DNA of 64,000 nt from assembly GCA_902628335.1 (NCBI GenBank), contig CACOMO010000003.1, positions 20,792 to 84,791 on the forward strand, written 5' to 3'. The position numbers and the translations under genes are program-made. Source of the DNA: an uncultured Gammaproteobacteria bacterium (lineage in GTDB: Bacteria > Pseudomonadota > Gammaproteobacteria > GCA-002705445 > GCA-002716945). The stretch's first letter is position 1. Each line of letters opens with the position of its first letter. Positions 14,145 to 56,970 of the stretch are shown here, in pieces. The notes beneath the pieces are model-generated. The model was not told the DNA's origin, did not search any database, and saw nothing but the letters and a program-made list of their open reading frames with translations.

Positions 14145-14795
14145 ATGATTATCCTTGCAATTGACTCCTCTAGTAAAGATTTGTCTTTATCATTAAGATC
14201 TGAGAAAGGTATAGAAACAAAAATATATCAGAAAGATGGCAAACACAGTGAAATATTTCTTCAAGCACTTAACGACCTGCTAGATACAAACAATATGCAG
14301 GCATCAGACTTATCAGGTATACTATTTAATAAAGGTCCTGCTAGTTTTACTGGTACTAGAGTCGCAGCTTCGTCACTTCAAGCAATTGGATACACTTTAA
14401 ACATACCAATAGTGGGTATCTCATCTTTAGAGGTAATGGCTTATGTATATTCATCAGATTCTAATATGACTAGGTTTGAGTGTGCCAAGTACGCTTATGG
14501 TGATAGATATTTTACTGCTTCATTCGAAAAATCAAAAAAGTTATATCAAATCAAAGACACATTACTATCTGATATTAAAATGATAAACATATCACATAAT
14601 GAGCACCTCGTTTTAAATACTGAACTTTCTAAATACATCGAGAGAAAATGTATACCTATAACATACGATCACACAATTTTATCACGAGAGACAAATAGTG
14701 AGGATTTAATATCTTTTGCAGAAAAGTATATAAATCTTGGCAGTGAATTCAAACTTTCTGATACACTGCCTGATTATGCAAATCACGAAATTTAG
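14145..14795 (+). CDS. tsaB: tRNA threonylcarbamoyladenosine biosynthesis protein TsaB
   Basis: MIILAIDSSSKDLSLSL start typical of TsaB, then GPASFTGTRV. The track start (14091) would overlap tRNA-Arg, so the start was moved to the ATG at 14145. Confidence 0.85.
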   Translation: MIILAIDSSSKDLSLSLRSEKGIETKIYQKDGKHSEIFLQALNDLLDTNNMQASDLSGILFNKGPASFTGTRVAASSLQAIGYTLNIPIVGISSLEVMAYVYSSDSNMTRFECAKYAYGDRYFTASFEKSKKLYQIKDTLLSDIKMINISHNEHLVLNTELSKYIERKCIPITYDHTILSRETNSEDLISFAEKYINLGSEFKLSDTLPDYANHEI

Positions 14796-43283: not shown

Positions 43284-44464
43284 TGATCTATTTTATCGTT
43301 GCTGCGGTAGCTATAACATCAATTATTTTTTACTATTATTACAAACCAGAAAAGAAAGTAACTAAAAATGTTTTTAACGCAGAGTATTATAGAGGTTTGA
43401 ATTACTTATTAAACAATAAAGAGGATCGAGCTTTTAAAATATTTACTGCATTGATGGATGTAGATAGTTCTACAATTGAAACTCATTTGGCGCTCGGAGG
43501 TCTTTATCGTAAAAGAGGAGAGTTTGATAAAGCAATACTAATCCACCAAAATCTTTTATCAAGGCCAACACTTGAGAAGGAGTTAAAAAATCAAGCGTTA
43601 TATGAGTTAGCAAAAGATTTCCATTCAGCAGGACTTTACGATAGATCTGAGAAAATCTTCAAAAATCTCTCTGAATTTGACTCATATGCACTCTCTTGTT
43701 ATGAGGAGTTAGTCAAACTTTATGAGGTTATCAAAGATTGGGATAAAGCAATTAATACAATAAATAAATCTGATAGTGTTGAGATAAACAATCATCCAAG
43801 AGATTTATTAATTTCTCATTATCTTTGTGAAATATCAAATAATCATTATAATGATTCAGAAATTGAAAGAGCGGTTGTTGTTACAAAAAAATCACTCAAG
43901 ATATCACCAATGTCTTTAAGGCCATATCTCCAGCTTGGAGAATACTATTCAGAAACAGACGTTAAACGTTCTTTGCAATATTACACTCAAGCAATACAAG
44001 TTGATACAGATTTTTCTAAATATATTATTAGTAAAATAATTAATTTAACTAAATCAGAACATAACAGTAGTCTAGTGATGGATACCATACAATCGCTATC
44101 TGGTGAAAGCGAGCTTCCATTCATCCCTGGAGTATATGTTTATCTACTCTATGAGGGTAATGATACTATAGCCTCATCATATATAAAGAGATATCATGGT
44201 GTCAGTGATTATGATGATTTCACAATCAATTGCACACTAGCAACAGTGGAAAAAAATGACATGACTAAAATACCAACAGTTGACAATATGATAAATAGTT
44301 ATAAGAAGATCTTTGATAAAGGTTTTATTTTCTTATGTTCGAATTGTGGGTATAAATCTAATATTTTGAATTGGTTATGTCCAAGTTGCAACAACTGGAA
44401 TTCCTCAAAACCGATTACGTCATTTGATTTGATAGAGAGAGGTCAGAAAAATGCTGGACAGTAA
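43283..44464 (+). CDS. lapB: Lipopolysaccharide assembly protein LapB (YciM)
   Basis: N-terminal TM, TPR repeats (LGGLYRKRGEFDKAILIHQNLL) and a C-terminal rubredoxin-like CSNCGY...WLCPSCNNW. Confidence 0.88.
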   Translation: MIYFIVAAVAITSIIFYYYYKPEKKVTKNVFNAEYYRGLNYLLNNKEDRAFKIFTALMDVDSSTIETHLALGGLYRKRGEFDKAILIHQNLLSRPTLEKELKNQALYELAKDFHSAGLYDRSEKIFKNLSEFDSYALSCYEELVKLYEVIKDWDKAINTINKSDSVEINNHPRDLLISHYLCEISNNHYNDSEIERAVVVTKKSLKISPMSLRPYLQLGEYYSETDVKRSLQYYTQAIQVDTDFSKYIISKIINLTKSEHNSSLVMDTIQSLSGESELPFIPGVYVYLLYEGNDTIASSYIKRYHGVSDYDDFTINCTLATVEKNDMTKIPTVDNMINSYKKIFDKGFIFLCSNCGYKSNILNWLCPSCNNWNSSKPITSFDLIERGQKNAGQ

Positions 44465-45134
44465 AGTCATCATAGCACTTGATTATTCGGATGAAAAAGA
44501 AGTCTGGCAATTTTGTGAACGACTAGATAATAATAAATGCAAGTTAAAAGTTGGAAAACAGCTTTTTACAAAGTATGGACCAAGCTTAGTTGAGAAACTT
44601 CAGTCAAAAGGTTTTAAAATTTTTCTTGATCTCAAATTCCATGATATACCAACTACAGTATACAAAGCATCAATAGAAGCATATAAATTAGGTATCTGGA
44701 TGCTGAATGTACATGCTCTAGGTGGAGCAGAGATGATGAGAGCGGCTTTACAAGCTAGAGATGAGATTAATTCTGAATCAAAATTAATCGGGGTTACGGT
44801 TTTAACTAGTCATTCAGATGAGAGCCTTTCACGCATTGGTATTGGCAAAAGAGATAATCTAGCAAAAATACTTGCTAATCAGGTAAGTGATGTAGGATTA
44901 GATGGTGTTGTGTGCTCACCATCAGATATTGAGTCAATTGGAATTAGAGAGGAGTCGTTTTTATTCGTCACACCTGGAATACGATTATCTCTGGATAGTG
45001 ATGATCACAATAATGCTTTTACACCGAAACAAGCATGTAGTTTGGGTGCTGATTATATCGTCATAGGTAGACCAATCACAGAGTCAGATGACCCAATGTG
45101 TATTTTAGATAAGGTAGTTTCATCTACTTATTAA
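44451..45134 (+). CDS. pyrF: Orotidine 5'-phosphate decarboxylase
   Basis: VIIALDY..., KVGKQLF, FLDLKFHDIPTT, IVIGRPI motifs. Confidence 0.92.
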   Translation: MLDSKVIIALDYSDEKEVWQFCERLDNNKCKLKVGKQLFTKYGPSLVEKLQSKGFKIFLDLKFHDIPTTVYKASIEAYKLGIWMLNVHALGGAEMMRAALQARDEINSESKLIGVTVLTSHSDESLSRIGIGKRDNLAKILANQVSDVGLDGVVCSPSDIESIGIREESFLFVTPGIRLSLDSDDHNNAFTPKQACSLGADYIVIGRPITESDDPMCILDKVVSSTY

Positions 45135-46109
45135 GGATTTATAGTCTGAGTCCTCCTCAAACTTTGCACCATAAACTTTAATTATTTCCGAAGCACAATT
45201 ATTCGCAAATATGAGGGATTTTTTTATATCTGCATAAGTAACGAAGTAATGCATAAAAGCTCCAAGAAACATGTCGCCTGCACCAGTAAAATCTATTGAG
45301 TGAACTTTATTACCCTTAACTCTGTGATAATTATCATCGTCACTATATATAGCCCCTTTATCACCAAGCGTAACGATTACTCTTTTTGAGAAATTCTTTA
45401 GATAATCTAGAGATTTATCAAGTTCATTGATTTCTGAAAAATTATACGCCTCTTGCTCGTTACAAAAGATGAACTCAATTTTCTTTTGAAGCAATGACAG
45501 AATGTTGCTCTTAAAATATTGAACAATGTTCGGATCAGATAATGTAATTACTATTTTTGTATTAGTTTCATGTGAAATATCAACAGCGTTATTGCATACG
45601 GACAGTGTTCTATCATTACTTACCAAGTAACCCTCAATTAAGAGATATTTTGAACTAGCAATTAGATCTCTAGATATATCATTTTGTTCCAACATACTCG
45701 ACGATCCAAGATATGTATTCATTGTTCTCTCATTATCTGGTGTAATTAGAACTAGACATTCTCCGCTACTCCCAGAATCAATCTTTTGTACATCAGATTG
45801 AATTCCAGAATCTTCAATACTTTTGATAAATTTATTTCCTGAGTCATCATTTGATACTTTGCCAGAAAAGCAAACATTATTGCCAAATTTGGCCATGGCA
45901 TAAATTGAATTTGCGACAGAACCGCCAGGCATGATCTTTTTAGATTTAATTTTATTTTTTAGCGAATTATGGATTGATACATGCTGATCAAATTCATTCA
46001 ACAACATTGTCCCTTTTTGGAGTTTTAAATCCTCGAGTAAACTCTCATCTACTAGGTATTCATAATCTAGCAGTGCATTTCCGATTCCGTATGCTACTAA
46101 TTTTTTCAT
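45120..46109 (-). CDS. PfkB-family sugar/nucleoside kinase (adenosine-kinase-like)
   Basis: GIGNALLDYEY N-terminus, GGSVANS, and the C-terminal anion-hole motif DFTGAGDMFLGAF. Confidence 0.8.
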   Translation of the reverse strand: MKKLVAYGIGNALLDYEYLVDESLLEDLKLQKGTMLLNEFDQHVSIHNSLKNKIKSKKIMPGGSVANSIYAMAKFGNNVCFSGKVSNDDSGNKFIKSIEDSGIQSDVQKIDSGSSGECLVLITPDNERTMNTYLGSSSMLEQNDISRDLIASSKYLLIEGYLVSNDRTLSVCNNAVDISHETNTKIVITLSDPNIVQYFKSNILSLLQKKIEFIFCNEQEAYNFSEINELDKSLDYLKNFSKRVIVTLGDKGAIYSDDDNYHRVKGNKVHSIDFTGAGDMFLGAFMHYFVTYADIKKSLIFANNCASEIIKVYGAKFEEDSDYKSLISR

Positions 46110-46238
46110 AAATAATATAATATCATCTATATATGGCTTGTTGAAAGAAAACTAGATGTTATCATGAATATATAACTTACATAATAAGAGTTATATTTGA
46201 ACATTGACTTTAAATGATGATTGTTACAAGGAGTTAAC

Positions 46239-47435
46239 ATGAAAATACTTTGCATATTATATGATGATCCAAAAGATGGGATGCCAAAATCATATCCATT
46301 AAATGAGCTACCTAGGATAGAGAAATATCCGGATGGCATGACATTACCGTCCCCAAAAGGTAGGGACTTCAATCCAGGAGAACTTTTAGGCTGTGTATCT
46401 GGAGAGCTGGGATTAAGGAAATTTCTAGAACAGAATGGTCATGAATTTTTTGTTACTTCAGATAAAGATGGCGAAGGTTGTGAGGCAGACAAGCATCTTG
46501 TTGATGCAGATATTGTTATATCTCAACCATTTTTTCCATATTATCTTACAAAAGACAGGATAGAGAGAGCGTCTAAACTTAAACTAGCTATCACAGCAGG
46601 CATCGGCTCTGATCATGTTGACTTGCAAGCTGCTATGGATAATAACATTGATGTAGTTGAGGTCACGTACTGTAATTCACGCTCAGTGGCTGAACATATT
46701 GTCATGATGATTTTGTCAATGGTCAGAGATTATCACACACAACATAGCATTGTGAAAGCTGGAGGCTGGAATATCGCAGATGCGGTAAAAAGGAGTTATG
46801 ACGTGGAGGGTATGCATATTGGCACTGTTGCAGCAGGGAGAATTGGTTTAGATGCTTTGAGAAAACTCAAGCCATTTGACGTCCATCTCCATTATTTTGA
46901 CAGACATAAACTACCGGATTCTATTGAGAAAGAGTTAAATCTAACATTTCATGAGTCAGTTGAGTCTATGGTCGAGATCTGTGATGTGGTGACTATTAAC
47001 TGTCCACTTCATCCTGAGACTGAAAATCTTTTTGATAAAGAACTTATTAGCAAGATGAAAAGAGGGGCATATATTATAAATACTGCTAGAGGGAAGATAT
47101 GTAACAGAGAAGCTATTGCGGAAGCACTATCTATCGGACAACTATCTGGTTATGCGGGTGATGTCTGGTTTCCTCAGCCTGCACCTAATGATCATGTCTG
47201 GAGAAGTATGCCTCATCAAGGTATGACGCCACATACATCGGGGACCTCACTATCTGCCCAAACTAGATATGCTGATGGAGTTAGAGAAATTTTAGAGTGT
47301 TTTTTTGATGGTAAACCTATTAGGGATGAATATCTTATTGTATCAGATGGTAATTTAGCTGGAACAGGTGCACATAGTTATAGTAAAGGTTCTGCAACCA
47401 AGGGTTCTGAAGAGGCTGCTGATTTTAAAAAATAA
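46239..47435 (+). CDS. fdh: NAD-dependent formate dehydrogenase
   Basis: Near end-to-end similarity to soluble NAD+-FDH: MKILCILYDDP.DG.PK.Y, VISQPF.P.YLT, TAGIGSDHVDL, GTVAAGRIGL, GYAGDVWFPQPAP, C-terminal GTGAHSYSKG.AT.GSEEAA.FKK. The start at the ATG is preceded by AAGGAG. Confidence 0.95.
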   Translation: MKILCILYDDPKDGMPKSYPLNELPRIEKYPDGMTLPSPKGRDFNPGELLGCVSGELGLRKFLEQNGHEFFVTSDKDGEGCEADKHLVDADIVISQPFFPYYLTKDRIERASKLKLAITAGIGSDHVDLQAAMDNNIDVVEVTYCNSRSVAEHIVMMILSMVRDYHTQHSIVKAGGWNIADAVKRSYDVEGMHIGTVAAGRIGLDALRKLKPFDVHLHYFDRHKLPDSIEKELNLTFHESVESMVEICDVVTINCPLHPETENLFDKELISKMKRGAYIINTARGKICNREAIAEALSIGQLSGYAGDVWFPQPAPNDHVWRSMPHQGMTPHTSGTSLSAQTRYADGVREILECFFDGKPIRDEYLIVSDGNLAGTGAHSYSKGSATKGSEEAADFKK

Positions 47436-47458
47436 AAAATTGATTCTTTAAAAAAAGT

Positions 47459-48496
47459 TTAACTCAAATAATTTGATGTTTGCATTTCAGACAATCTGCT
47501 TTTGCATCTATCCCAAAGGATTTTGAGTTTTTCACCAGTATACAAATTCTTATATGAGCAACTTCCAAAAAAAAACTTAATTCTAGTTCTATCTCTGTAG
47601 CAGACATCTATAAAAGATATAAATCTTCTGATGATATCAGCGGATTCATCATCACAGACTCTAAAATCATTCAAAAATATCCATTCCATTTTTTTCGATA
47701 ACTCAATATAGTCGTCTGAACCATTAGGTTCAGAGAAAAAGATATTAAAAGATAACCAGATAAAGTCTTTTGAATAAGCTTTACAACTAAACTCTCTCGA
47801 GTTGATTTGAAATTTATTTTTATCATAATCCTTATTAAAAAAATTCTTTTCGATGACAATTTTTATTTCTTCATCTGTATAAACCTGGTTAAGTTTATCT
47901 TTATCTTCATTCACGATATTTCTTGCTCTATAATCAATCTCCCCATTTAATTCGTAAATATTGAAAGATTTAATTATAAGAGACATATCATCTATAAATT
48001 TTTTTCTTTGCAGACCATTTTTATAAAGATCATTCGGATGTACATTTGATGTCAAATAGAGAATAACACCTAAACGATTTAGATTGTCCAATAATTTTCC
48101 TACAATCATTGCGTCAGCTACATCTTCGACTTGAAATTCATCAATAAAAATTATTTCATATCTTTTATTTAATGATTGAGCTACTTTTTCTATTGGATTT
48201 TTTTTACCCGATAACGAGTATAACTGACTTTGAATGTCTTGCATAAAATCAATATAATGAAATATAGCCTTCTTACTCTGAATTGAATCTAGAAAAGATT
48301 TTGTCATTATAGTTTTACCTCTACCAACATCACCCCATATATAGAAATTTTTTTTATTTACTCTATTGTTCTTAAGTACATTAATCGAGGATTTATTTAT
48401 CGATAAACTATCTATCATTTCTTCTAATAGATCTGATTGAACTTGATTTACTTTAATCCCCTGATTTTTTAAATTATTTAATATTTTTTTAATCAT
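47459..48496 (-). CDS. zapE: AFG1-family ATPase ZapE
   Basis: Walker A YIWGDVGRGKT, Walker B IIFIDEFQVEDV, and the AFG1-type C-terminal region. The ATG at 48496 is preferred over the TTG at 48508. Confidence 0.85.
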   Translation of the reverse strand: MIKKILNNLKNQGIKVNQVQSDLLEEMIDSLSINKSSINVLKNNRVNKKNFYIWGDVGRGKTIMTKSFLDSIQSKKAIFHYIDFMQDIQSQLYSLSGKKNPIEKVAQSLNKRYEIIFIDEFQVEDVADAMIVGKLLDNLNRLGVILYLTSNVHPNDLYKNGLQRKKFIDDMSLIIKSFNIYELNGEIDYRARNIVNEDKDKLNQVYTDEEIKIVIEKNFFNKDYDKNKFQINSREFSCKAYSKDFIWLSFNIFFSEPNGSDDYIELSKKMEWIFLNDFRVCDDESADIIRRFISFIDVCYRDRTRIKFFFGSCSYKNLYTGEKLKILWDRCKSRLSEMQTSNYLS

Positions 48497-48509
48497 TTTG
48501 ATTCCCAAT

Positions 48510-48561
48510 TACCACTGATCGGACTCGAACCGATACTCTCTTGCGAGAAAGGGATTTTGAG
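48510..48561 (-). pseudogene. Detached 3' half of tRNA-Leu(CAA): anticodon loop to discriminator
   Basis: The minus strand reads CTCAAAA TCCCT TTCTCGCAAGAGAGT ATCGG TTCGAGT CCGAT CAGTGGT A. There is no matching D arm or acceptor 5' strand adjacent. The complementary 5' half is at 50989-51027. Confidence 0.85.
48554..48561. repeat. Left copy of the 8-bp direct repeat ATTTTGAG (island junction)
   Basis: An identical 8-mer occurs at 50988-50995. On the tRNA strand it is CTCAAAAT, i.e. the anticodon loop plus one base. Confidence 0.65.
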
Positions 48562-48596
48562 AACATCGTTCCTATGAACCCCACATTTTCGATATT

Positions 48597-48626
48597 TTAA
48601 CATTCATTTGTACTTTGTGTTATAAT
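48597..48626 (+). promoter_or_regulatory. Candidate sigma70 promoter of the island operon
   Basis: TTAACA (48597-48602), an 18-nt spacer, then TGtTATAAT with an extended -10 (TATAAT at 48621-48626). Lies 55 nt upstream of the ORF at 48682. Confidence 0.4.
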
Positions 48627-48628
48627 AA

Positions 48629-48660
48629 AAGTGTAAGTTTTCGTTTAGAAAATCACACTT
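48629..48660. promoter_or_regulatory. Imperfect palindrome (candidate operator) between promoter and first island ORF
   Basis: AAGTGTAAGTTTTC gttta GAAAATCACACTT. The arms match except for one mismatch and one indel. It starts 3 nt after the -10 element. Confidence 0.4.
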
Positions 48661-48681
48661 AACTAACTACAGGAGTAATCT

Positions 48682-48900
48682 ATGTCAGAATGTTTAGTGA
48701 TACCACCAACTGTAATCAATAATACTATTGTCGCCTTATCAAAAGACAAAATGTGCACTGTTTTCTGGAGTGAGAAATCTAAATCATTTGAATCTGCTGA
48801 GGGTATCTATACAGTTGCTGAAGTTGCAGATGCTACGCCTGCGTCAGAAAATATCATAAAGTCAAAAGGCGTACTATTCAATTTAGCAAATAATTCGTAA
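48682..48900 (+). CDS. Hypothetical 72-aa protein, first gene of the island operon
   Basis: Strong RBS (ACAGGAG, 7 nt, ATG). Same strand as the methyltransferase and 17 nt upstream of it. No HTH or other family recognisable. Confidence 0.5.
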   Translation: MSECLVIPPTVINNTIVALSKDKMCTVFWSEKSKSFESAEGIYTVAEVADATPASENIIKSKGVLFNLANNS

Positions 48901-48917
48901 AGTCAGAGAAACTATAA

Positions 48918-49904
48918 ATGTACAAAGTGGGTGGATTATTTTCTGGAGTCGGCGGTATCGAACTTGGGTTTAAAAACCAAGGATTCGATATACGTTGGGC
49001 AAATGATAACGACATTCACTGTTCTAAAACCTATAAGATAAACCATAAACATAAATACATTCTAAAAGATATTCATAAATTAAGTGCCTCAGAACTAGAA
49101 CCTGTTGATGTAATGACTGGAGGTTTCCCATGCCAAGCATTCTCTGTTGCTGGTTATCGAAAAGGATTAAAAGATGAGAGAGGCAATCTCTTTTTTGAAA
49201 TTCTAAGACTGATAGATGAATTTAATAATCCACCCAAAGTACTACTCCTTGAAAATGTAAAAAACTTTTCTACTCATGATAAAGGTAGAACTCTCAAAAT
49301 TTTAAGAGAAGAATTAGAAAATCGTGATTACTGTGTATTTAATCATGTGCTCAATACTGCAGACTACACATCGATTCCTCAAAATAGAGAAAGAACATTT
49401 ATTATTTGTTTTCGTGAGGGTAGGGATGCTTATTTAGATTCAACACAACCTATGACAACTAAGTTTAGAATGTCCTTTCCCCCAAGGAAGAATAACAACA
49501 AAACTGATTTTAAAACGTTACTAGAGAAAAATGTTGATGAGAAATATTACTATCGCGATGATAAGTATATGTATAAAGACTTAATAAATGATATGAAATC
49601 TAAAGATACTTTTTATCAGTGGAGAAGACAGTATGTTCGTGAAAACAAAAGTCAATTATGCCCAACGTTAACTGCCAATATGGGAACAGGAGGTCATAAT
49701 GTTCCATTAATTCTTACAGATAAAGGGATACGTAAACTTACACCAAAAGAGTGTTTTTTGTTACAAGGATTTCCAAAGAGTTTTAAACTTCCAAAAGAGT
49801 CACCAAATGGTCAATTATATAAACAATCTGGTAACTCAGTAACAGTTAAACTAATTGAGGTACTAGCAAAAATCATAAAATCATGCTTAGATAAAAAAGT
49901 GTAA
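48918..49904 (+). CDS. DNA (cytosine-5)-methyltransferase (type II)
   Basis: A full C5-MTase motif set in order: I LFSGVGGIELGF, IV GGFPCQAFSVAG, VI LLENVKNF, VIII QNRERTFI, IX RKLTPKECFLLQGFP, X QSGNSVTV. The variable TRD lies between VIII and IX. Confidence 0.93.
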   Translation: MYKVGGLFSGVGGIELGFKNQGFDIRWANDNDIHCSKTYKINHKHKYILKDIHKLSASELEPVDVMTGGFPCQAFSVAGYRKGLKDERGNLFFEILRLIDEFNNPPKVLLLENVKNFSTHDKGRTLKILREELENRDYCVFNHVLNTADYTSIPQNRERTFIICFREGRDAYLDSTQPMTTKFRMSFPPRKNNNKTDFKTLLEKNVDEKYYYRDDKYMYKDLINDMKSKDTFYQWRRQYVRENKSQLCPTLTANMGTGGHNVPLILTDKGIRKLTPKECFLLQGFPKSFKLPKESPNGQLYKQSGNSVTVKLIEVLAKIIKSCLDKKV

Positions 49905-49921
49905 TTTTTTTAAGAGATTTT

Positions 49922-50734
49922 ATGATTATAAGTCGTCTTACCCTTCCAGAACTTACTCAAATATTTAATAAAGATGCTCAAAGCGTAATAAGTTATTTTA
50001 TTTTTAAAGCAGTAATATCACAACCCGAATTGATAAAAGGGCAAGTTACGAATCCTATACAGATTCCGAAAGAGCACATTGAACAATGGGGTGTTCAAGC
50101 GCTTGGTTTAAATTCTATAGGAGCAGGGAGTTATCCAATAGACCTAATAGAGAAAAATCAAAAATATGGTGCGGATATTAAAATGTTATCTTGGGGTGGA
50201 TCGAAAAAACAATCAGGAGAGACATCATTAGGTCAAAAATTTGTTGATAGTAATTTAGATAAACTATTTTTAGAAAAACGTTACGACGATATAGTCAGAT
50301 CATGGGTTAAAATTCTCGATGACAAATTTAATATGCTCTTTAAAAATCATCCTAACCTTACAAATATTTATTATTTTATATTTATTCGTGATGGAAAAAA
50401 GTTTCATATTTGTGGCATGAAGGTTGATACTTCTAGTTTTTCTTCGATGATAACTGGTAAGACTTCAAGAGACTCGGTATGGGTCAATAATTTTATTGAC
50501 AGTAAATATGGACAAATAAAGATATATAAAGCAAAAAAAAGAATGGAGTTAAGACTTCTACCTCATCAGTGGATTGAAGATAATTTAGTGATAACATTCG
50601 ATATTAAAGATTATAATATATCATCAAGAGATATTATTAATTTAACTGTTTCTGAAAGATATAAATCTTATAAAGATGACTTTATAAAACTATTCAATGC
50701 ATACTGTAATTATACTGAAGATGAAAATAAATGA
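49922..50734 (+). CDS. Putative type II restriction endonuclease (cognate of the adjacent methyltransferase)
   Basis: Lies 17 nt downstream of the MTase on the same strand. No family recognised. A candidate PD-(D/E)xK-like arrangement is YPID(74)...GAD(85)IK(87). The assignment rests on context. Confidence 0.5.
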   Translation: MIISRLTLPELTQIFNKDAQSVISYFIFKAVISQPELIKGQVTNPIQIPKEHIEQWGVQALGLNSIGAGSYPIDLIEKNQKYGADIKMLSWGGSKKQSGETSLGQKFVDSNLDKLFLEKRYDDIVRSWVKILDDKFNMLFKNHPNLTNIYYFIFIRDGKKFHICGMKVDTSSFSSMITGKTSRDSVWVNNFIDSKYGQIKIYKAKKRMELRLLPHQWIEDNLVITFDIKDYNISSRDIINLTVSERYKSYKDDFIKLFNAYCNYTEDENK

Positions 50735-50781
50735 AAGGATATTAAAATCAATATAATGAAGAAGAAAAATCTTTTCTAAAA

Positions 50782-50861
50782 TAGCGTGGGAGGGACTCGA
50801 ACCCTCAACCCGAAGGAGCAGGTTTTGAATCTGCCGTGTATACCAATTCCACCACCACGCC
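50782..50861 (-). tRNA. tRNA-Leu (anticodon CAA), intact, carried inside the insertion
   Basis: Hand-folded 80-nt class II cloverleaf: GGCGTGG TG GTG GAATTGGTATA CAC G GCAGA TTCAAAA CCTGC TCCTTCGGGTT GAGGG TTCGAGT CCCTC CCACGCT A. There is one A31-C39 mismatch and a G1-U72 pair. Confidence 0.85.
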
Positions 50862-50987
50862 ATTAATTTAATACTATCAAAATACAAACATTTACAACAG
50901 GCGTTTGTCATTACGAATGTTTGTCAAATGATTGTGATAATACTCTCGAAACTTTAATAAAACAAAGGGATATTAAATTACTTATTT

Positions 50988-50995
50988 ATTTTGAG
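50988..50995. repeat. Right copy of the 8-bp direct repeat ATTTTGAG (island junction)
   Basis: Identical to 48554-48561. It overlaps the anticodon loop of the orphan 5' tRNA half. Confidence 0.65.
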
Positions 50996-51027
50996 TCCCT
51001 CGTGTCTACCAATTTCACCACAGTGGC
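50989..51027 (-). pseudogene. Detached 5' half of tRNA-Leu(CAA): acceptor 5' strand to anticodon loop
   Basis: The minus strand reads GCCACTG TG GTG AAATTGGTAGA CAC G AGGGA CTCAAAA and is then followed by AT-rich non-tRNA sequence. It is complementary to the 3' half at 48510-48561. Confidence 0.85.
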
Positions 51028-51036
51028 ATACAAAAT

Positions 51037-51065
51037 ATTGTAACAAATAACTCATCGTCATGAAA
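51037..51065 (-). promoter_or_regulatory. Candidate native promoter of the split tRNA-Leu gene
   Basis: The minus strand reads TTTCAT, a 17-nt spacer, then TGTTACAAT (extended -10), ending 9 nt before the tRNA 5' end. Such matches are common in AT-rich DNA. Confidence 0.3.
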
Positions 51066-51087
51066 TCTATGATATATTTACTTATGT

Positions 51088-51291
51088 ATGAACGAATTTA
51101 ATACATACTGGATAATAAGTGGTCTTATAATATTTTTGCTTATCGTTTACATCATTAAGCAGATAAGGTTGGAAAAAGAAATTGCCCTCAAAGACACTAC
51201 CCTCGAGAGTCTCGAGGAGAAGCTTAAAAAGCACAAACTAGTTGGCGGTCGACACAAGAGAACCAACAAGAAAAATCCACCAATAGTCTAA
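51088..51291 (+). CDS. Hypothetical small membrane protein (N-terminal TM, charged helix, basic tail)
   Basis: 67-aa ORF: YWIISGLIIFLLIVYII, then LEKEIALKDTTLESLEEKLKKHK. No family recognised. Contains a GC-rich palindrome. Confidence 0.4.
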   Translation: MNEFNTYWIISGLIIFLLIVYIIKQIRLEKEIALKDTTLESLEEKLKKHKLVGGRHKRTNKKNPPIV

Positions 51292-51732
51292 TTATTTTTG
51301 TAGTTTCGCTGCCTGAGCTTTCTTTGCCATCTCTGGTGTGTAAGCTCCGCCTGACCACAACATCTCATAGACTATCTCTTCATTTCCATTTTCACAAATG
51401 TCTATGACTCTTTGAAATAGAGGCTGGAACGTCTCGCTTTTATGTGATTCTTCATGATCTTCATACGATTTCCAAAAAGTGATTATTAGTGCTTCTCGAC
51501 CTTTTAGTTCCGAATCAAGCGCCTTACCAACATTGCTACCTTCATTAGAGATCTGACCACTGTTTAGAACTACCATGCCACCAATAAATCCTGTTTCAGA
51601 ATGATATGTTTTGACATTCTCGCACATTTCAGCGACACGCATTTGAAGATCATCTGTGGTATAACCATCTTTTAGTATGACTCTATTTACTGTCACAATC
51701 CCATCATACGGGAAGTTATTTATTAAACTCAT
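51292..51732 (-). CDS. Hypothetical protein, possibly ABM / dimeric alpha-beta-barrel-like
   Basis: 146-aa ORF. The segment ALIITFWKSYEDHEESHKSETFQPLF resembles ABM-domain monooxygenase-like proteins. The similarity is weak and judged by eye only. Confidence 0.4.
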   Translation of the reverse strand: MSLINNFPYDGIVTVNRVILKDGYTTDDLQMRVAEMCENVKTYHSETGFIGGMVVLNSGQISNEGSNVGKALDSELKGREALIITFWKSYEDHEESHKSETFQPLFQRVIDICENGNEEIVYEMLWSGGAYTPEMAKKAQAAKLQK

Positions 51733-51831
51733 ATAGTTATTAGAGCAAAATATGCATCTGAAATCAATATAAGTATTTGCTAATATTCAGCATAGTTGAC
51801 TTGGTCTAGATTCAGAGTACCATCCAATATC

Positions 51832-52872
51832 ATGAAATTTCGCTCTATAGACGATTATAATTTTGAATTACCCACAGATTTGATAGCAAATTTTCCCAAA
51901 GAAAAGCGCTCTGATTCTAGACTCTTGTGTTATAGCCATAAGAGAGATAGTTTATCTCATAAAACTTTCAGTGATATATGTAATTTAGTTGATTGTGGAG
52001 ATGTAATAATTCTCAATGATACTAGAGTAATTCCAGCGAGAATGAATTTAAAAAAAAGCAGCGGTGGAGCTGTCGAGATATTATTTATGAATTGCAAAAG
52101 TAATAAGGCATTTACAGTAATTTACAAATCATCACGACCACCAAAAATAGATGCAATATTGACCGATAATAATTTGAGATTTCAGGTTTTGGAGGTTAAA
52201 AAGAACACACTACTTTTATTAAACTTAAATAATTTAGATATTCTAGAAATTTTAGATAAATATGGTAACATCCCACTTCCGAAGTACATCAAGAGAGATA
52301 GTAATTTACAAGATAGAGAAAAGTATCAAACAGTGTTTGCAAGAAAAAAAGGATCTATAGCAGCACCGACAGCTGGTTTACATTTTACAAAAGATATGAT
52401 TCAGAGACTTGAAACCAAAGGCGTCAAAGTAGAATATATAACACTACATATCAGTTACAATACTTTCAAACCTATAACTTCTGATAATTATCTTAGTCAT
52501 GATATAGGATTTGAAAAATTTAGTGTCAATACTAAAACATTTAATATGATAGAAAAAGCAAAAAAAAATAAAAATAAAGTTATTGCTGTGGGCACTACAG
52601 TCACAAGAGCTTTGGAGCATTGTTATCAGAATAATATAAAAGAAACATACAGTGGAGAGACTAACTTATTTATTTATCCTGGTTTTGAATTCAAAGCAAT
52701 TAATTGCTTAATTACAAACTTTCACTTACCAAAATCATCATTGTTGCTCCTAGTCGCAGCTTTTATCGGTAGATCTCGTATACTATCACTCTATAGAATG
52801 GCAATAGACAAAAAATATAAATTCTATAGTTATGGTGATAGTATGTTTCTCAATAGGAATCATGAAATTTAA
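51832..52872 (+). CDS. queA: S-adenosylmethionine:tRNA ribosyltransferase-isomerase
   Basis: The start MKFRSIDDYNFELPTDLIANFP..KRSDSRLL aligns with the QueA N-terminus. Also AAPTAGLHFT, VGTTVTRALE, SYGDSMF. The track start at 51796 (TTG) is over-extended. Confidence 0.93.
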   Translation: MKFRSIDDYNFELPTDLIANFPKEKRSDSRLLCYSHKRDSLSHKTFSDICNLVDCGDVIILNDTRVIPARMNLKKSSGGAVEILFMNCKSNKAFTVIYKSSRPPKIDAILTDNNLRFQVLEVKKNTLLLLNLNNLDILEILDKYGNIPLPKYIKRDSNLQDREKYQTVFARKKGSIAAPTAGLHFTKDMIQRLETKGVKVEYITLHISYNTFKPITSDNYLSHDIGFEKFSVNTKTFNMIEKAKKNKNKVIAVGTTVTRALEHCYQNNIKETYSGETNLFIYPGFEFKAINCLITNFHLPKSSLLLLVAAFIGRSRILSLYRMAIDKKYKFYSYGDSMFLNRNHEI

Positions 52873-53962
52873 TATTAAGAAGAAATATAAAAAAGCAAGA
52901 TTAGGTCTTTTAACATTAGATCATGGAGAAGTTAATACTCCAGCATTTATGACTGTCGGAACTTACGGATCAGTAAGAGGGTTATCAGAAAATGATTTAG
53001 AGAATTGTAATGCTGAAATAATGTTATGTAATGCATATCACCTCATGAGTAAAATAAGTGAAATTTGTTCTATAAAATCTATAACTCTACATGATTACAT
53101 TGCATGGAACAGACCAATTTTGACTGATTCTGGTGGATACCAAGTCTTTAGTTTGTCTGAACATACGGAGGTTAGCCGCAAAGGAGTAACATTTAAATCT
53201 CCATTAAATGGTGATACTTTATTTCTATCACCTGAGAAATCTATCAAAATTCAGGAAATGCTTGGTAGCGATATCATGATGATTTTTGATGAATGTCCTA
53301 AATATCCGTTATCTAAAGAAGCAATAGAAAAATCAATGGAACTCTCATTATATTGGGCTGAACTTTCAAAAGGAGCTCATTCATCAAATCAGTCACTATT
53401 TGGAATCGTTCAAGGAGGTATGTATGAGGACTTGAGAGAGACATCATTGAGCGAACTCATTAAACTTGATTTTGATGGTTATGCTCTTGGTGGCCTGTCT
53501 GTTGGTGAGCCGAAAATGATTAGAGAGAGAATTGTGAGCAATATATCCTCAAAACTACCAGATGACAAACCCAGATATTTGATGGGTGTTGGAAAACCTA
53601 CAGATATTATCTACGCTGTGAATGAGGGTATCGATATGTTTGATTGTGTTATACCGACTAGAAATGGGAGAAATGGTCAATTATTTACTAACCATGGAAC
53701 TATGAACATACGAAATAGTAAATACGAGAATGACTTAAAGCCGATTGATGAGGCTTGCACGTGTTATACTTGCAAGAATTATAGTCGATCTTTTCTAAAA
53801 CACCTAGACAAATGTAATGATAGTCTTGCGGGGAGACTTATGAGCATTCATAATGTATACTTCTATCAAGATTTTATGAAAAAAATAAGAACCGCTATAT
53901 ATGATGGTACACTCGAGCAAATGATGGAAAAAGTTAATTTAATTTACTCAAATAGCCAATGA
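52862..53962 (+). CDS. tgt: Queuine tRNA-ribosyltransferase
   Basis: The start MKFNI...ARLG.L....G.V.TPAFM.VGT aligns with the Tgt N-terminus. Also TDSGGYQVFSL, LGGLSVGE, and the zinc site CTCYTC...H. Confidence 0.95.
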   Translation: MKFNIKKKYKKARLGLLTLDHGEVNTPAFMTVGTYGSVRGLSENDLENCNAEIMLCNAYHLMSKISEICSIKSITLHDYIAWNRPILTDSGGYQVFSLSEHTEVSRKGVTFKSPLNGDTLFLSPEKSIKIQEMLGSDIMMIFDECPKYPLSKEAIEKSMELSLYWAELSKGAHSSNQSLFGIVQGGMYEDLRETSLSELIKLDFDGYALGGLSVGEPKMIRERIVSNISSKLPDDKPRYLMGVGKPTDIIYAVNEGIDMFDCVIPTRNGRNGQLFTNHGTMNIRNSKYENDLKPIDEACTCYTCKNYSRSFLKHLDKCNDSLAGRLMSIHNVYFYQDFMKKIRTAIYDGTLEQMMEKVNLIYSNSQ

Positions 53963-54282
53963 ATATTATAGATATCGCAATAGCTGCATCAGCACAACAA
54001 GAGCCATCAGCTCTAGGCTTCTTATTACCTATATTCATTCTTGTACTGATGTATTTTATACTCATCAGACCTCAATCAAAAAAAATGAAAGAGCATAAGA
54101 AAATGTTGACTCAAATAAAAGTTGGAGATGAAATTGCTTCAGCTGGCGGAATATTAGGTACAATAGTAAAAGTAGGTGATACGTATGTTGAAGTTAAGAT
54201 ATCTTCAACTACAGAGATCAAGTTACAAAAATCATCTGTGAGTAAGATTCTTCCTAAAAATTCAATTGGGACGATAAAATAA
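53959..54282 (+). CDS. yajC: Preprotein translocase subunit YajC
   Basis: 107 aa with a single TM, FILIRPQSKKMKEHKKM and GDEI.S.GGILG motifs. tgt-yajC-secDF synteny. Confidence 0.9.
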   Translation: MNIIDIAIAASAQQEPSALGFLLPIFILVLMYFILIRPQSKKMKEHKKMLTQIKVGDEIASAGGILGTIVKVGDTYVEVKISSTTEIKLQKSSVSKILPKNSIGTIK

Positions 54283-54283
54283 A

Positions 54284-56077
54284 ATGTCTGCATACCCGAA
54301 ATGGAAATATTTTCTAGTTCTATCAGTTTTAATTCTATCAGTAGTCTATTCCTTACCTAACTTTTATACATCGTATCCGTCAATAGAACTACAAAAAAAT
54401 AATGATTCTACAAATATTAATGAAATAAATAAGATTGTTAATGAAGGCGTAAAATCTTTAAGCTCTGATGAAACAGCAAATAAAATGATATATCGTTTCT
54501 CAAGTATTGATGATCAACTTAAAGCTTATAATAATCTCGAGACAGCAAACTTAGCCGAAGAGTTTACACTTTTTACTGACAGAGAATTACCATCATTTTT
54601 CAAGACCATAAATGCGAATCCTATGTTTTTAGGGTTAGACTTGAAAGGTGGTGTTCATTTTTTATTACAGGTTGACGAGGATAACATTAGAAAAAACCTC
54701 CTGAGGGAGATTGAATCAGATATAAAAAAGTTACTGATCAAAGAAAGAATTAGGTTTTCACAATCTAATAGGAAAGACAAAAGCTTTAATTTTTCTTTTA
54801 ATAACAAAGATGCTTATAAAGAGGCATTAGAATTAATTGAAAAAAATAATCTAGGAAAAGATTATGATATTACTCCGGAGGAAAATAATTTTTTTATAAG
54901 CATAATGCCGTCACAAAAAGCCATCGATTATGATATTAAAAGTTCAGTGACAAAAAACATGACTATTCTTAGAAACAGAGTGAATGAAATCGGCGTTTCA
55001 CAACCAATAGTTCAAAGACAAGGAAAAAATCGTATTATCGTTCAACTACCAGGTTTGCAAGACTCCACTCGCGCGAAAAATATTCTTGGATCTACCGCAA
55101 CACTAGAGTTTAGATTAACCAAGGGAACTCCTGAGGATTGGTATGCATCTAAACTAGCAGGTTCGCCACTTATAGCATCTGCAAAGTTATATGAACAAAG
55201 CAATGGAGATCCAGTTCTCTTATCTAGAAAGGTTATAGTATCTGGTGGTGAGATAAGGAATGCAAATACAGGCTTTGACTCTACCACAAATTCTCCAGCT
55301 GTATTTGTTAGATTAACTGATTATGGCGCATCCAACATGCTTGATACTACGCAGAGTAATATCGGAAAAAGGATGGCCGTAGTTTTTGTTGAGAAAGATA
55401 ATGAAAAAGTAATAAATATTGCAGTAATTAGAGAAGCTTTTAGTCAGAATTTTCAAATAACTGGCTTAGATATCAATGAAGCAAAAGATTTGTCTATTCT
55501 TCTAAGATCTGGAGCACTTCAAGCGCCTATGGAGATCGTAGAGGAGAGAACAGTGGGACCTAGTTTAGGGAAGGATAATATCATTTCAGGTCAAAATTCT
55601 ATGTACCTAGGCATGTTTCTTGTCACCATCTTTATGTTTATCTATTATAGAACTTTCGGTGTGATAGCGATAGTTGCTCTGTTAGCAAATTTACTTATAA
55701 TCATTTCCTTGTTATCAGTTTTTCAAGCTACACTTACGCTATCAGGAATCGCAGGTATAGTTCTAACTGTTGGGATGGCGGTCGATGCAAATGTTTTAAT
55801 ATTTGAAAGAATAAGGGAGGAAATAGCAAATGGCAACACTCCAAACGCAAGCATATATTCAGGGTATAAAAAGGCATTTTCAACTATCTCAGATGCAAAC
55901 ATCACAACGTTGATCGCAGCAATCTGCTTACTCACTATAGGAACAGGCGCCGTTAAAGGTTTTGCGGTTACACTGGTTATCGGAATTCTTTCCTCAATGT
56001 TTACATCAATAGTTGGCACAAGAGCTGTCGTAAGTCTGATCTACGAAAATAGAAAATCAGAGAGACTTTCAATATGA
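54284..56077 (+). CDS. secD: Protein translocase subunit SecD
   Basis: LGLDLKGGVHFLLQVD, a large periplasmic domain, VGPSLG, and a C-terminal six-TM block with GIAGIVLTVGMAVDANVLIFERIREE. Confidence 0.94.
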   Translation: MSAYPKWKYFLVLSVLILSVVYSLPNFYTSYPSIELQKNNDSTNINEINKIVNEGVKSLSSDETANKMIYRFSSIDDQLKAYNNLETANLAEEFTLFTDRELPSFFKTINANPMFLGLDLKGGVHFLLQVDEDNIRKNLLREIESDIKKLLIKERIRFSQSNRKDKSFNFSFNNKDAYKEALELIEKNNLGKDYDITPEENNFFISIMPSQKAIDYDIKSSVTKNMTILRNRVNEIGVSQPIVQRQGKNRIIVQLPGLQDSTRAKNILGSTATLEFRLTKGTPEDWYASKLAGSPLIASAKLYEQSNGDPVLLSRKVIVSGGEIRNANTGFDSTTNSPAVFVRLTDYGASNMLDTTQSNIGKRMAVVFVEKDNEKVINIAVIREAFSQNFQITGLDINEAKDLSILLRSGALQAPMEIVEERTVGPSLGKDNIISGQNSMYLGMFLVTIFMFIYYRTFGVIAIVALLANLLIIISLLSVFQATLTLSGIAGIVLTVGMAVDANVLIFERIREEIANGNTPNASIYSGYKKAFSTISDANITTLIAAICLLTIGTGAVKGFAVTLVIGILSSMFTSIVGTRAVVSLIYENRKSERLSI

Positions 56078-56970
56078 GTTTAAAGATTATAGATAATACT
56101 AAATTTAACTTCCTAAAACAAAAAAGAAAAGCTTTAATAATTTCTAGCTTCGTCATAATTATAAGTTTTTTTAGTCTTATGATTCAAGGTCTTAATTATG
56201 GGATTGATTTTTCTAGTGGCTATATTATCCAGTTGGAATTCGATAAAGATGTGAAAGTTGAGAATATTAAAAAAAACTTTTCAAATAATATGGCTGAGAA
56301 TTCAATAGTCCAGTATTATGGGAGTCAAAAAGAAGTAATAATAAAACTTCAGGAATCAGATTCATATGATCAAAATAATATCAATGACTTTCTATCAAAG
56401 GTACTAGATAATTATAATTACAAAATTCAGAAACTTGATTTTGTGGGTTCACAAATAGGAAGTGAATTAAGAACAAAAGGCGAGTGGGCAATGCTTGTCG
56501 CACTGATAAGTATTCTTGTTTATATTGGTTTTAGATTTGAATTTCTATATGGGATTGGTGCGATTCTTGCATTAATTCATGATGTTTTAATTACTGTGGG
56601 GATTTTTTCTATTTTACAATTACAGTTTGATCTTACTGTTTTATCTGCATTACTTGCTGTTATTGGATATTCATTAAATGATACTATTGTTGTATATGAT
56701 CGTATAAGAGAAAATGCTACTATTATGCACTCAGATCAACCAGAGAAAATTCTCAATAGATCAATCAATCAAACATTATCCAGAACATTAATCACTTCTC
56801 TAACAACATTATTTGTTTTATTTTCTCTTTTGATATTTGGTGGAATAGCAGTAGAATACTTTTCAATAGCAATGATTATAGGTGTTTTAGTGGGAACTTT
56901 TTCTTCTATTTATATAGCGGGGGCTAGTTTATTTTTCCTCAGAGTGCTTGAGAAGAGTGATGAACATTAA
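56074..56970 (+). CDS. secF: Protein translocase subunit SecF
   Basis: GIDFSSG, HDVLITVGIFS, IGYSLNDTIVVYDRIREN motifs. Overlaps the secD stop. Confidence 0.94.
   Translation: MSLKIIDNTKFNFLKQKRKALIISSFVIIISFFSLMIQGLNYGIDFSSGYIIQLEFDKDVKVENIKKNFSNNMAENSIVQYYGSQKEVIIKLQESDSYDQNNINDFLSKVLDNYNYKIQKLDFVGSQIGSELRTKGEWAMLVALISILVYIGFRFEFLYGIGAILALIHDVLITVGIFSILQLQFDLTVLSALLAVIGYSLNDTIVVYDRIRENATIMHSDQPEKILNRSINQTLSRTLITSLTTLFVLFSLLIFGGIAVEYFSIAMIIGVLVGTFSSIYIAGASLFFLRVLEKSDEH

Follow-up and report, generated by a model that had tools for sequence, protein, structure and literature searches.

A probable family of small tRNA-bearing defence islands in the anticodon loop of a SAR86 tRNA-Leu(CAA) gene

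Organization of the locus

The stretch of DNA analysed here, 64,000 nt of contig CACOMO010000003.1 (hereafter the window), contains a resident tRNA-Leu(CAA) gene that is split in two, with queA on one side and zapE on the other. Between the two halves lies an island of approximately 2.4 kb (~48562-50988), which carries a complete tRNA-Leu(CAA) gene of its own together with a small open reading frame (ORF), a DNA methyltransferase and a putative restriction endonuclease. The source cell is a SAR86-cluster gammaproteobacterium: the window has a G+C content of 32.5%, and SAR86-cluster genomes are matched by its lapB, pyrF, pfkB, NAD-dependent dehydrogenase, zapE, queA, tgt, yajC and secDF genes. 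Species-level relatives were retrieved with the window ZapE protein and comprise 80 genomes, nearly all of which are labelled SAR86. We refer to the split resident tRNA as A and to the island tRNA of the window as B; ARAGORN calls two tRNAs in the window, of which B is one. Comparison loci are designated by L and a number. The features that define the insertion are the following.

47459-48508, minus strand: zapE (AFG1-like ATPase; Pfam AFG1_ATPase, 1.8e-62), the host flank downstream of the tRNA, used as query for relatives and conspecific contigs.
48510-48561, minus strand: orphan 3' half of A, which runs from the anticodon loop as far as A73 and lies immediately before zapE (nhmmer E = 2.7e-14 for model positions 1-52).
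48554-48561, minus strand: left copy of the duplicated core CTCAAAA(T).
50782-50861, minus strand: intact island tRNA-Leu(CAA) B, 80 nt, with a short variable arm, A73 and no encoded CCA (ARAGORN 50781-50862; Rfam tRNA model matched at full length, 52.2 bits, E = 2.7e-9).
50862-50988, minus strand: 127-nt spacer, a conserved module upstream of the island tRNA that is homologous over its full length to the spacers of other islands.
50988-50995, minus strand: right copy of the duplicated core CTCAAAA(T), that is, the 7-nt anticodon loop plus one base, present once in the empty site and twice in the filled one.
50989-51027, minus strand: orphan 5' half of A (positions 1-38), ending in the anticodon loop CTCAAAA (nhmmer E = 1.3e-10, model positions 1-39).
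51037-51045, minus strand: native extended -10-like motif of A, TGTTACAAT, a predicted promoter element now upstream of the orphan 5' half.

Filled and empty alleles

Both halves of A are perfectly preserved. The 5' half (51027-50989, GCCACTGTGGTGAAATTGGTAGACACGAGGGACTCAAAA) is 100% identical to the 5' half of the intact gene in L001-L003, L024 and L123, and the 3' half (48561-48510, CTCAAAATCCCTTTCTCGCAAGAGAGTATCGGTTCGAGTCCGATCAGTGGTA) is likewise 100% identical to intact A. When fused at their common CTCAAAAT, the halves are recognized by ARAGORN as a tRNA-Leu(CAA), and the fused gene matches the unsplit one of L001, L002, L003, L024 and conspecific contigs at 100% identity.

Contigs of the same population were retrieved with the exact window 67-aa ORF and the exact window ZapE. 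Four of these (L123, L124, L125 and L130) are 99.3-99.9% identical to the window over 43654-48569 and 50988-56291, and between these segments they have one intact A with a single CTCAAAAT and nothing else. Three more (L139, L140 and L142) encode the exact window ZapE and have an intact tRNA directly upstream of zapE. Species-level relatives (L001-L003, L014, L016, L017 and L024) are also island-free with A intact; in L001, L002, L003 and L024 the BLAST similarity to the window is interrupted at 48569 and 50988, and the intact A lies directly upstream of zapE. The B allele was found in L132, and contigs L126-L128 stop at the A 5' half, as expected for an assembly that meets a polymorphism. The 2.4-kb segment is a precise and recent presence/absence polymorphism, inserted in the anticodon loop of A.

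Boundaries of orphan halves were determined with nhmmer over the loci retrieved up to that stage. All orphan 5' halves end at CTCAAAA; these are the A halves of the window, L012, L083, L084, L086, L087, L109 and L126-L132, and the half of a second tRNA, C1, in L109. The orphan 3' halves start at CTCAAAA or no more than 2 bases away from it, with the exception of L095, where the core reads TGCAAAA. All breaks lie at the duplicated 7-nt anticodon loop CTCAAAA, which is a recognised sublocation for integration into tRNA genes.

An earlier reading of the window by itself (the original prediction) had placed the promoter-like motif TGTTACAAT at 51037-51045 on the minus strand, and this position is correct. 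Intact A of the empty-site contig L123 is preceded by this motif too, as is an apparently native tRNA of L085, B2, by a similar one, TTTGTTACAAT. TGTTACAAT was not flagged by a simple sigma-70 scan because it has no -35 hexamer.

The island tRNAs

ARAGORN and Rfam agree with the original prediction that an intact 80-nt tRNA-Leu(CAA) lies inside the insertion at 50782-50861 on the minus strand, and the orphan 5' half is, as was also reported there, exactly 127 nt away (50862-50988) and in the same orientation. The claim that B is not a simple duplicate of A is borne out by alignment: the acceptor, anticodon, variable and T stems are different, and the D arm and T loop are common to both.

Other islands carry the tRNAs C1, C2 and D, each of which is likewise a tRNA-Leu(CAA). 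The seven types distinguished (A1, A2, B1, B2, C1, C2 and D) fold into one cloverleaf, in which 17 of 25 pairs are each kept by one or more of the sequences despite changes on both sides. All seven have a G1-U72 wobble atop the acceptor stem with a T-A pair possible one step outward, A73 and no encoded CCA; the B types have an extra A31-C39 mismatch. B has one and the same sequence at five loci (the window, L083, L084, L086 and L132), against a divergence of up to 11% in the spacer. Its loop reads TTCAAAA and has an altered neighbouring base (GATTCAAAAC versus GACTCAAAAT); C1, C2 and D retain CTCAAAA.

At the more distant locus L085 a B-type gene is the sole tRNA-Leu; it stands behind the native-type motif TTTGTTACAAT and immediately before pfkB, and there is no island. 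Ordinary chromosomal genes of the B type are thus found as well.

B very probably substitutes for the split A, a role supported by the recurrence of the architecture and by purifying selection on the tRNA. UUG makes up 11.4% of the leucine codons in the long ORFs of the window. During integration the island tRNA would take over the function of the split gene, and a complete tRNA with its own promoter would make an island independent of the host tRNA sequence outside the loop, host tRNAs being strongly divergent among SAR86 lineages. A read-through transcript from TGTTACAAT into B is plausible. The original prediction that the islet inactivates the resident tRNA and supplies a substitute is therefore upheld by the empty-site contigs as regards the insertion and is very probable as regards the substitution; the attribution of the tRNA to a restriction-modification (R-M) cassette is contradicted by L083 and L084, in which the same spacer-B module accompanies other cargo.

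Conserved ends of the islands

The spacers before B, C1, C2 and D, which are 127-141 nt long, align over their whole length in L083, L084, L086, L087, L012 and L109. Common to them are the blocks CACAAaCATT, aCAAACATT, AAATGTTTGT and TTTGaTAGaAT, the last of which is extended -10-like and lies 8-12 nt before the tRNA; in the window the conserved extended -10-like motif of B itself is TGATAGTAT, at 50871-50879 within the spacer. The window spacer also has ACAAAC repeats at 50903-50908 and 50919-50924 and an inverted copy at 50884-50889. Upstream of A, and of B2 in L085, the native promoter regions have neither the blocks nor the repeats. Two other interpretations of the spacer were dropped: that it is a decayed tRNA 3' half, none being found by nhmmer at E <= 1, and that its inverted repeat forms an RNA hairpin, one arm being broken in L084 without compensation.

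The opposite end of the island is marked by a second conserved element.

48562-48610, minus strand: conserved left-end block, consisting of an outward extended -10-like motif, TGTTAAAAT (48594-48602), and approximately 32 nt that abut the core.

This block, made up of about 45 nt that precede the core, is kept in islands with unrelated cargo, including those of L012 and L025, which have no small ORF. Its motif TGTTA(A/G)AAT points toward the A 3' half and zapE, and the promoter scan flags ATAACA-18-TAAAAT with a TG on the minus strand at 48623-48594. The block may be a promoter for the A 3' half and zapE, or an arm of an attachment (att) site, or both; as a promoter, the outward motif would keep zapE expressed. 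The resemblance of the left end to a tRNA 5' half with its leader is weak (p = 0.001-0.09 across five variants). An origin as a decayed promoter and tRNA 5' half is a weakly supported possibility, and no tRNA half was detected by nhmmer within the spacer or the left end.

In L084 (81-91) and L109 (~14727-14736, minus strand), which have different spacers, the core is directly followed by TGATTCAAAA, giving a second, B-like copy of the loop (CTCAAAA-TGA-TTCAAAA). The window does not have these 10 nt after the core. TGATTCAAAA could have been left behind by a B-type tRNA that was split, or could belong to an att site.

Related islands

Four contigs were obtained by scanning metagenomes for a 26-mer of B, and L087 and further alleles were found with the exact window small ORF. 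L083, which is approximately 79% identical to the window in core genes, has the same A 3' junction, the small ORF, B (100% identical) and the A 5' half, and its cargo consists of UDG-like and DUF6994 genes; L086 resembles L083 as far as the contig extends. In L084, three methylase-like ORFs and an HNH protein come after the A 5' half, spacer and B. Identity between L087 and the window is 99% from the A 3' half through the methyltransferase gene, beyond which L087 has a different 352-aa ORF, the intact tRNA C2, a homologous spacer and the A 5' half. L129, with conspecific flanks at 99.5% identity, continues after the A 5' half into a C1-type spacer and the start of C1. The single-cell genome L012 has, in order, the A 5' half, a spacer, C1, a 4.5-kb island (Schlafen/AlbA_2, MutS_I-like and DUF6994 genes), the A 3' half and zapE. 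Classification of the L012 tRNA as native was rejected as wrong, the orphan A 5' half lying upstream of it and the A 3' half at zapE.

A nested arrangement is present in a second single-cell genome, L109 (GCA_902542875.1), where the order is A 5' half, spacer, C1 5' half, spacer, intact D, a decayed A-like 3' half, a restriction endonuclease and two methylases, the small ORF, A 3' half and pfkB. Here a later island carrying D has in turn interrupted an earlier island tRNA, C1, at the same loop.

These loci define an island family with two conserved ends and swappable defence-type cargo (R-M, UDG-like/DUF6994 or Schlafen/MutS_I-like), and one population holds both empty alleles and alleles filled with at least two or three different island tRNAs.

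Islands and flanks differ markedly in their similarity to the window. In L089 and L091, zapE is 73% identical, whereas the A 3' half is 100%, the island left end 98% and the methyltransferase gene 92-96% identical; L094 has its own variant of the A 3' half and variable arm (92%), with an island left end that is 100% identical. On the other side, L083 has queA at 74% and the 67-aa ORF at 78%, against 97.6% for the spacer (3 differences in 127 nt, with flanking genes at 74-88%) and 100% for B. From this contrast we conclude that islands have moved recently between species.

Cargo genes

The cargo of the window island consists of the following features.

48597-48626, plus strand: promoter-like TTAACA-18-TATAAT with a TG, upstream of the small ORF (the best site of the scan, 11 of 12 matches, and a lead only, the number of sites being at chance).
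48682-48900, plus strand: conserved small ORF of 72 aa, the first gene of a unit formed with the methyltransferase and endonuclease genes (61 homologues at 63% identity or more).
48918-49904, plus strand: C5 cytosine DNA methyltransferase, M (Pfam DNA_methylase, 6.9e-81; PADLOC MTase_II, 3e-102; NCBIfam dcm, 1.6e-85).
49922-50734, plus strand: 270-aa putative type II restriction endonuclease, R, with a predicted nuclease function.
50730-50756, plus strand: vestige of the 3' end of a DUF6994 gene (NERILKSI and stop codon), matching the C-terminus (...RNERILKSIQ and stop) of a 231-aa protein of L012.

Of the two components of a type II R-M system, the methyltransferase is clearly present. The 270-aa protein has no sequence match in Pfam, PADLOC, NCBIfam or PDB, and its 306 homologues, from marine metagenomes, Bacillus, Clostridium and Poseidonibacter, are all labelled 'hypothetical'; some of them again adjoin a C5 methylase (L082). 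The residues P73-D74...D85-x-K87 are invariant in 34 homologues and constitute a PD-(D/E)XK-like motif. Its structural model (pLDDT 91.5) gave no significant match in Foldseek, with weak ones only to DpnI, HincII and EcoRV. On these sequence features the protein probably represents an undescribed family of type II restriction endonucleases. In L082 (340-2510), a 3.2-kb marine contig, an M-R pair that is 65-74% identical lies directly downstream of a MazG-like gene, and a phage context is possible.

The M-R pair spans approximately 48866-50725, as similarity to L083 ends at 48865 and similarity to L081 at 50725. L081 contains the closest relative of the pair (92% nucleotide identity) and loses similarity before B, a different gene following there. 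The L083 homologue of the 231-aa protein of L012 belongs to DUF6994 (E = 8e-86). The DUF6994 vestige and the homology boundaries with L083 and L081 indicate that the pair replaced older island cargo, and M and the putative nuclease appear to have been swapped in recently. Mobile type II R-M units have reportedly been characterized by Kobayashi and co-workers; the compact M-R cassette with its sharp boundaries and its occurrence in unrelated contexts (L081 and L082) is reminiscent of these, but here the R-M pair did not split the tRNA and instead replaced earlier cargo in a pre-existing island.

The small ORF is present in the islands of the window, L083, L087-L096 and L109, is absent from those of L012 and L025, and also occurs at loci without tRNA-Leu. 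Its model is all-beta, with a pLDDT of 68. Roles as a controller protein (helix-turn-helix) or as an excisionase were considered and rejected, given that it has no family match and an all-beta, low-confidence model, occurs at loci without tRNA-Leu and is missing from some islands. The promoter-like site at 48597-48626 is conserved upstream of small-ORF homologues; the conserved region of this family includes the 5' leader (48597-48681 in the window), with an AAGTGT...ACACTT inverted repeat. Homologues in L097-L106, L107, L134 and L138 edge variable regions at several loci with no tRNA-Leu nearby; in L107, for example, the homologue lies beside two C5 methylases and a NOV_C protein near a tRNA-Ile.

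Genes for a UDG-superfamily-like protein and DUF6994 form the island cargo together in L083 (10092-11323); in L012 (4532-5227 and 6750-7373) they are separated by the MutS_I-like and Schlafen/AlbA_2 genes. None of these genes has a PADLOC match, and they may form an undescribed set of defence genes.

No Phage_integrase match (Pfam, PADLOC) was obtained for any of the three ORFs in the window island or of ten cargo ORFs from L012, L083, L084, L087 and L109; for the L109 methylases the precomputed annotation lists only methylase families, and the three methylase-like ORFs of L084 were read by eye, not scanned. In the remainder of the window no integrase was found, the ten ORFs of suitable size being housekeeping genes. 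A BLAST search of GenBank phages with the spacer and B returned generic tRNA-Leu similarity only.

Comparison with known systems

The original prediction held that a tRNA-disrupting element with a non-identical copy of the same isoacceptor was not a described architecture, and here it was preceded by reports on phages: the design in which a host tRNA is split and a complete replacement provided is already known. The pelagiphages HTVC019P and HTVC025P split the SAR11 host tRNA-Cys and tRNA-Leu(TAG), respectively, in mid-gene with no complementing fragment, and each has a complete tRNA of its own, described as 'likely used instead' (Zhao et al., bioRxiv 10.1101/410191). The correspondence is close, as in both cases a host tRNA is interrupted mid-gene without complementation, a complete tRNA of the same anticodon is on the element and the host is a streamlined marine bacterium. 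However, HTVC019P and HTVC025P are T7-like podophages of approximately 40 kb with an integrase and an attP (phage attachment site) between the integrase and RNA polymerase genes, whereas the window island is about 2.4 kb with no phage gene or integrase; integrase, RNA polymerase and structural genes, by which a phage genome would be recognized, are absent from every island. Environmental junction reads place the pelagiphage tRNA next to the host 3' fragment, whereas the island tRNA adjoins the 5' fragment, and the variable defence cargo, conserved non-coding ends and nested serial replacement seen here are further differences.

In the vTRX32-1 group, a Rhizobium tRNA-Leu is interrupted at a shared 12-bp motif; this motif is missing from the complete tRNA-Leu of the phage, and super-integration would thereby be blocked (Ford et al. 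2021, PMC8631192). B is similar in that it differs in the loop region. However, vTRX32-1 is a phage with an integrase, and among the islands C1, C2 and D keep the core. C1 was split again in L109, and any immunity to re-integration would therefore be confined to B at best.

Canonical islands in tRNA genes (tDNAs) encode a tyrosine integrase and restore their target with a cognate fragment, which leaves one regenerated tDNA and a displaced fragment (Williams 2002; Islander, PMC4383910). The islands described here share with them the tRNA target, the anticodon-loop crossover, direct repeats at the ends and repeated use of the site, which gives rise to arrays. They differ in that A is left as two displaced halves and a different gene provides the intact tRNA; neither a restoring fragment nor an integrase was found.

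Tycheposons of Prochlorococcus are defined by a clade of tyrosine recombinases, are flanked by partial tRNAs that restore the gene and use seven targets, of which none is tRNA-Leu (Hackl et al., bioRxiv 10.1101/2020.12.28.424599). Here too, cargo elements drive variability at specific tRNA genes of a streamlined marine bacterium, and integrations and their remnants pile up beside the tRNA; unlike tycheposons, the islands have no recombinase, primase or helicase.

A full-text search of the literature, which is not proof of absence, returned no prior report of this design in islands of approximately 2.4-5 kb that have no integrase or phage genes and carry defence cargo. The same search, with the same limit, gave no prior report of conserved non-coding ends, a tRNA beside the displaced 5' half, several alleles per population or nested serial tRNA replacement.

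Mobility and alternative explanations

We propose, with a probability of roughly 0.7, that the window island belongs to a SAR86 family of defence islets that target the tRNA-Leu(CAA) loop and bring their own tRNA. Site-specific recombination at the loop is suggested because A and C1 are cut at the same 7 nt, because three types of spacer abut the A 5' half at the same base and because L094 keeps its own variable arm. The anticodon loop is a classic crossover site of tyrosine integrases (PMC4383910; PMC8371274), and the islands would move by site-specific recombination at the loop, most probably through a tyrosine recombinase supplied in trans, since no recombinase is encoded among the tested island ORFs; for this recombinase step and mobilisation in trans we see about even odds. 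Recombination between the two loop copies would regenerate A, and the island tRNA would be a device for avoiding cost rather than an addiction device. Excision would yield a circular junction ...GATGTT-CTCAAAA-TAAATAAG..., that is, ...GGAACGATGTT-CTCAAAA-TAAATAAGTAATTT....

We advance a more specific scenario tentatively, rating it somewhat short of an even chance: these may be dedicated, integrase-less 'tRNA-swapping' islets. Their minimal chassis would consist of an att-like left end with an outward promoter, the 7-nt core, and the conserved spacer with its complete tRNA-Leu(CAA), and would shuttle defence cargo from species to species where tRNA-Leu divergence is too great for a fragment-restoring strategy. 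Each arrival would retire the current tRNA and install a new one, so that a core translation gene would be replaced horizontally and diverge rapidly across SAR86, and the islets would be mobilised in trans, for example as satellites by a phage recombinase.

Several observations weigh against these proposals. No recombinase, circular form or free element bearing attP was found. Scans of viral contigs (IMG/VR) with a 32-mer of B, a 26-mer of the C-type spacer, a 17-mer of the left end plus core and a degenerate spacer pattern returned nothing or chance matches. Within one population, homologous recombination through the near-identical flanks could wholly explain gain and loss of the island. In L109 (14404-14946) the decayed A-like 3' half begins just 59 nt after D and the C1 3' half is missing, and the history of this locus is not reducible to two simple serial insertions. 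The number of promoter-scan sites over the whole region equals the chance expectation, and the promoter calls rest on the conserved extended -10-like motifs. The comparison loci are mostly metagenome contigs, L012 and L109 being the only single-cell genomes, and the tRNA inventory of the island-bearing cell covers the 64-kb window of its genome, which bears on whether B is the only CAA isoacceptor.

The most serious alternative, although an unlikely one, dispenses with a dedicated recombinase: one or a few illegitimate insertions would have been followed by homologous recombination only, through the long flanks within a population and through the 39-nt and 52-nt tRNA halves plus the island ends between species. 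The flanks of filled and empty alleles, identical at 99.3-99.9%, would permit this, as would tRNA halves that are conserved at 100% where zapE is 73% identical; no island contains an integrase, and the exchange of cargo between conserved ends looks like cassette replacement. Against it, the breaks in at least two tRNAs (A and C1) fall precisely in this 7-nt loop, with a homologous spacer after each, and three spacer/tRNA types abut the A 5' half at the same base. The variable arm peculiar to L094 leaves no more than 14 nt shared between the first variant position and the junction, and the site used is the classic crossover of tyrosine integrases cited above.

A further step down in probability is that the islands are decayed remnants of temperate T7-like SAR86 podophages resembling HTVC025P or vTRX32-1. 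The same design is described for phages abundant in the same habitat, and decay would account for the missing integrase. However, no phage gene occurs in approximately 10 island variants and no related viral contig was found; all variants have the two conserved ends, joined to the core at an identical base, which random decay would not give; and the island tRNA is on the 5' side of the break, not the 3' side as in pelagiphage junction reads.

The original prediction took the R-M islet itself for the mobile unit, which would have destroyed the resident tRNA and carried a substitute, so that its loss would be penalized twice over. Type II R-M pairs cause post-segregational killing, and this background and the architecture of the window, taken alone, would fit such a double addiction. 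We consider it improbable. The tRNA-spacer module accompanies cargo other than R-M in L083 and different R-M sets in L084, L087 and L109; the closest relative of the M-R pair, in L081, has a different downstream context; and the DUF6994 vestige points to replacement of earlier cargo by the pair. The addiction claim itself is unsupported on two grounds: the intact halves are flanked by a direct repeat, recombination at which would rebuild A, and island-free conspecifics with an intact A are common among the long contigs.

Two other explanations can be dismissed almost entirely. An ancestral tandem pair or local duplication of A and B, with A later disrupted by unrelated DNA, would explain their common orientation, D arm and T loop, but, as a check proposed with the original prediction has shown, no locus has an unsplit A beside B and empty sites carry A alone, while B lies within the insertion boundaries and B, C1, C2 and D each have a homologous, island-specific spacer that A lacks. 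A split A that still functions, whether by removal of a giant intron or by joining in trans, as in split tRNAs of the Nanoarchaeum type, would be in keeping with the perfect conservation of both halves, but recent insertion accounts for that conservation (empty alleles are at 99.5% identity), no group I intron or other Rfam family lies between the halves at E <= 1, the intervening DNA consists of antisense protein genes and another tRNA, and flank complementarity and duplex energy are no better than in shuffles (p = 0.35).

On the interpretation of these elements as loop-targeting islets with their own tRNA, the locus offers a clean natural example of an anticodon loop used as a landing site without dependence on the host tRNA sequence, with empty, filled, alternative and nested alleles, several of them in one population. 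Reports of this design have until now been limited to whole temperate podophages; the locus adds tiny, integrase-less defence islands in a very abundant uncultured marine bacterium, and suggests a route for repeated horizontal replacement of a core tRNA gene. The conserved non-coding ends and the 7-nt core can be used to seek the missing recombinase and circular intermediates. The idea of the tRNA as an addiction device would also be corrected.

Neighbouring genes

A gene resembling NAD-dependent 2-hydroxyacid/formate dehydrogenases lies between zapE and pfkB in the window (46221-47435) and in conspecific contigs. It is missing in L083, where zapE abuts pfkB, and represents a second insertion/deletion of this neighbourhood. 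In the secD region of a conspecific contig (L124/L143), two ORFs of 350 and 264 aa correspond to a 597-aa gene of the window, a difference that may reflect a frameshift or an assembly error.

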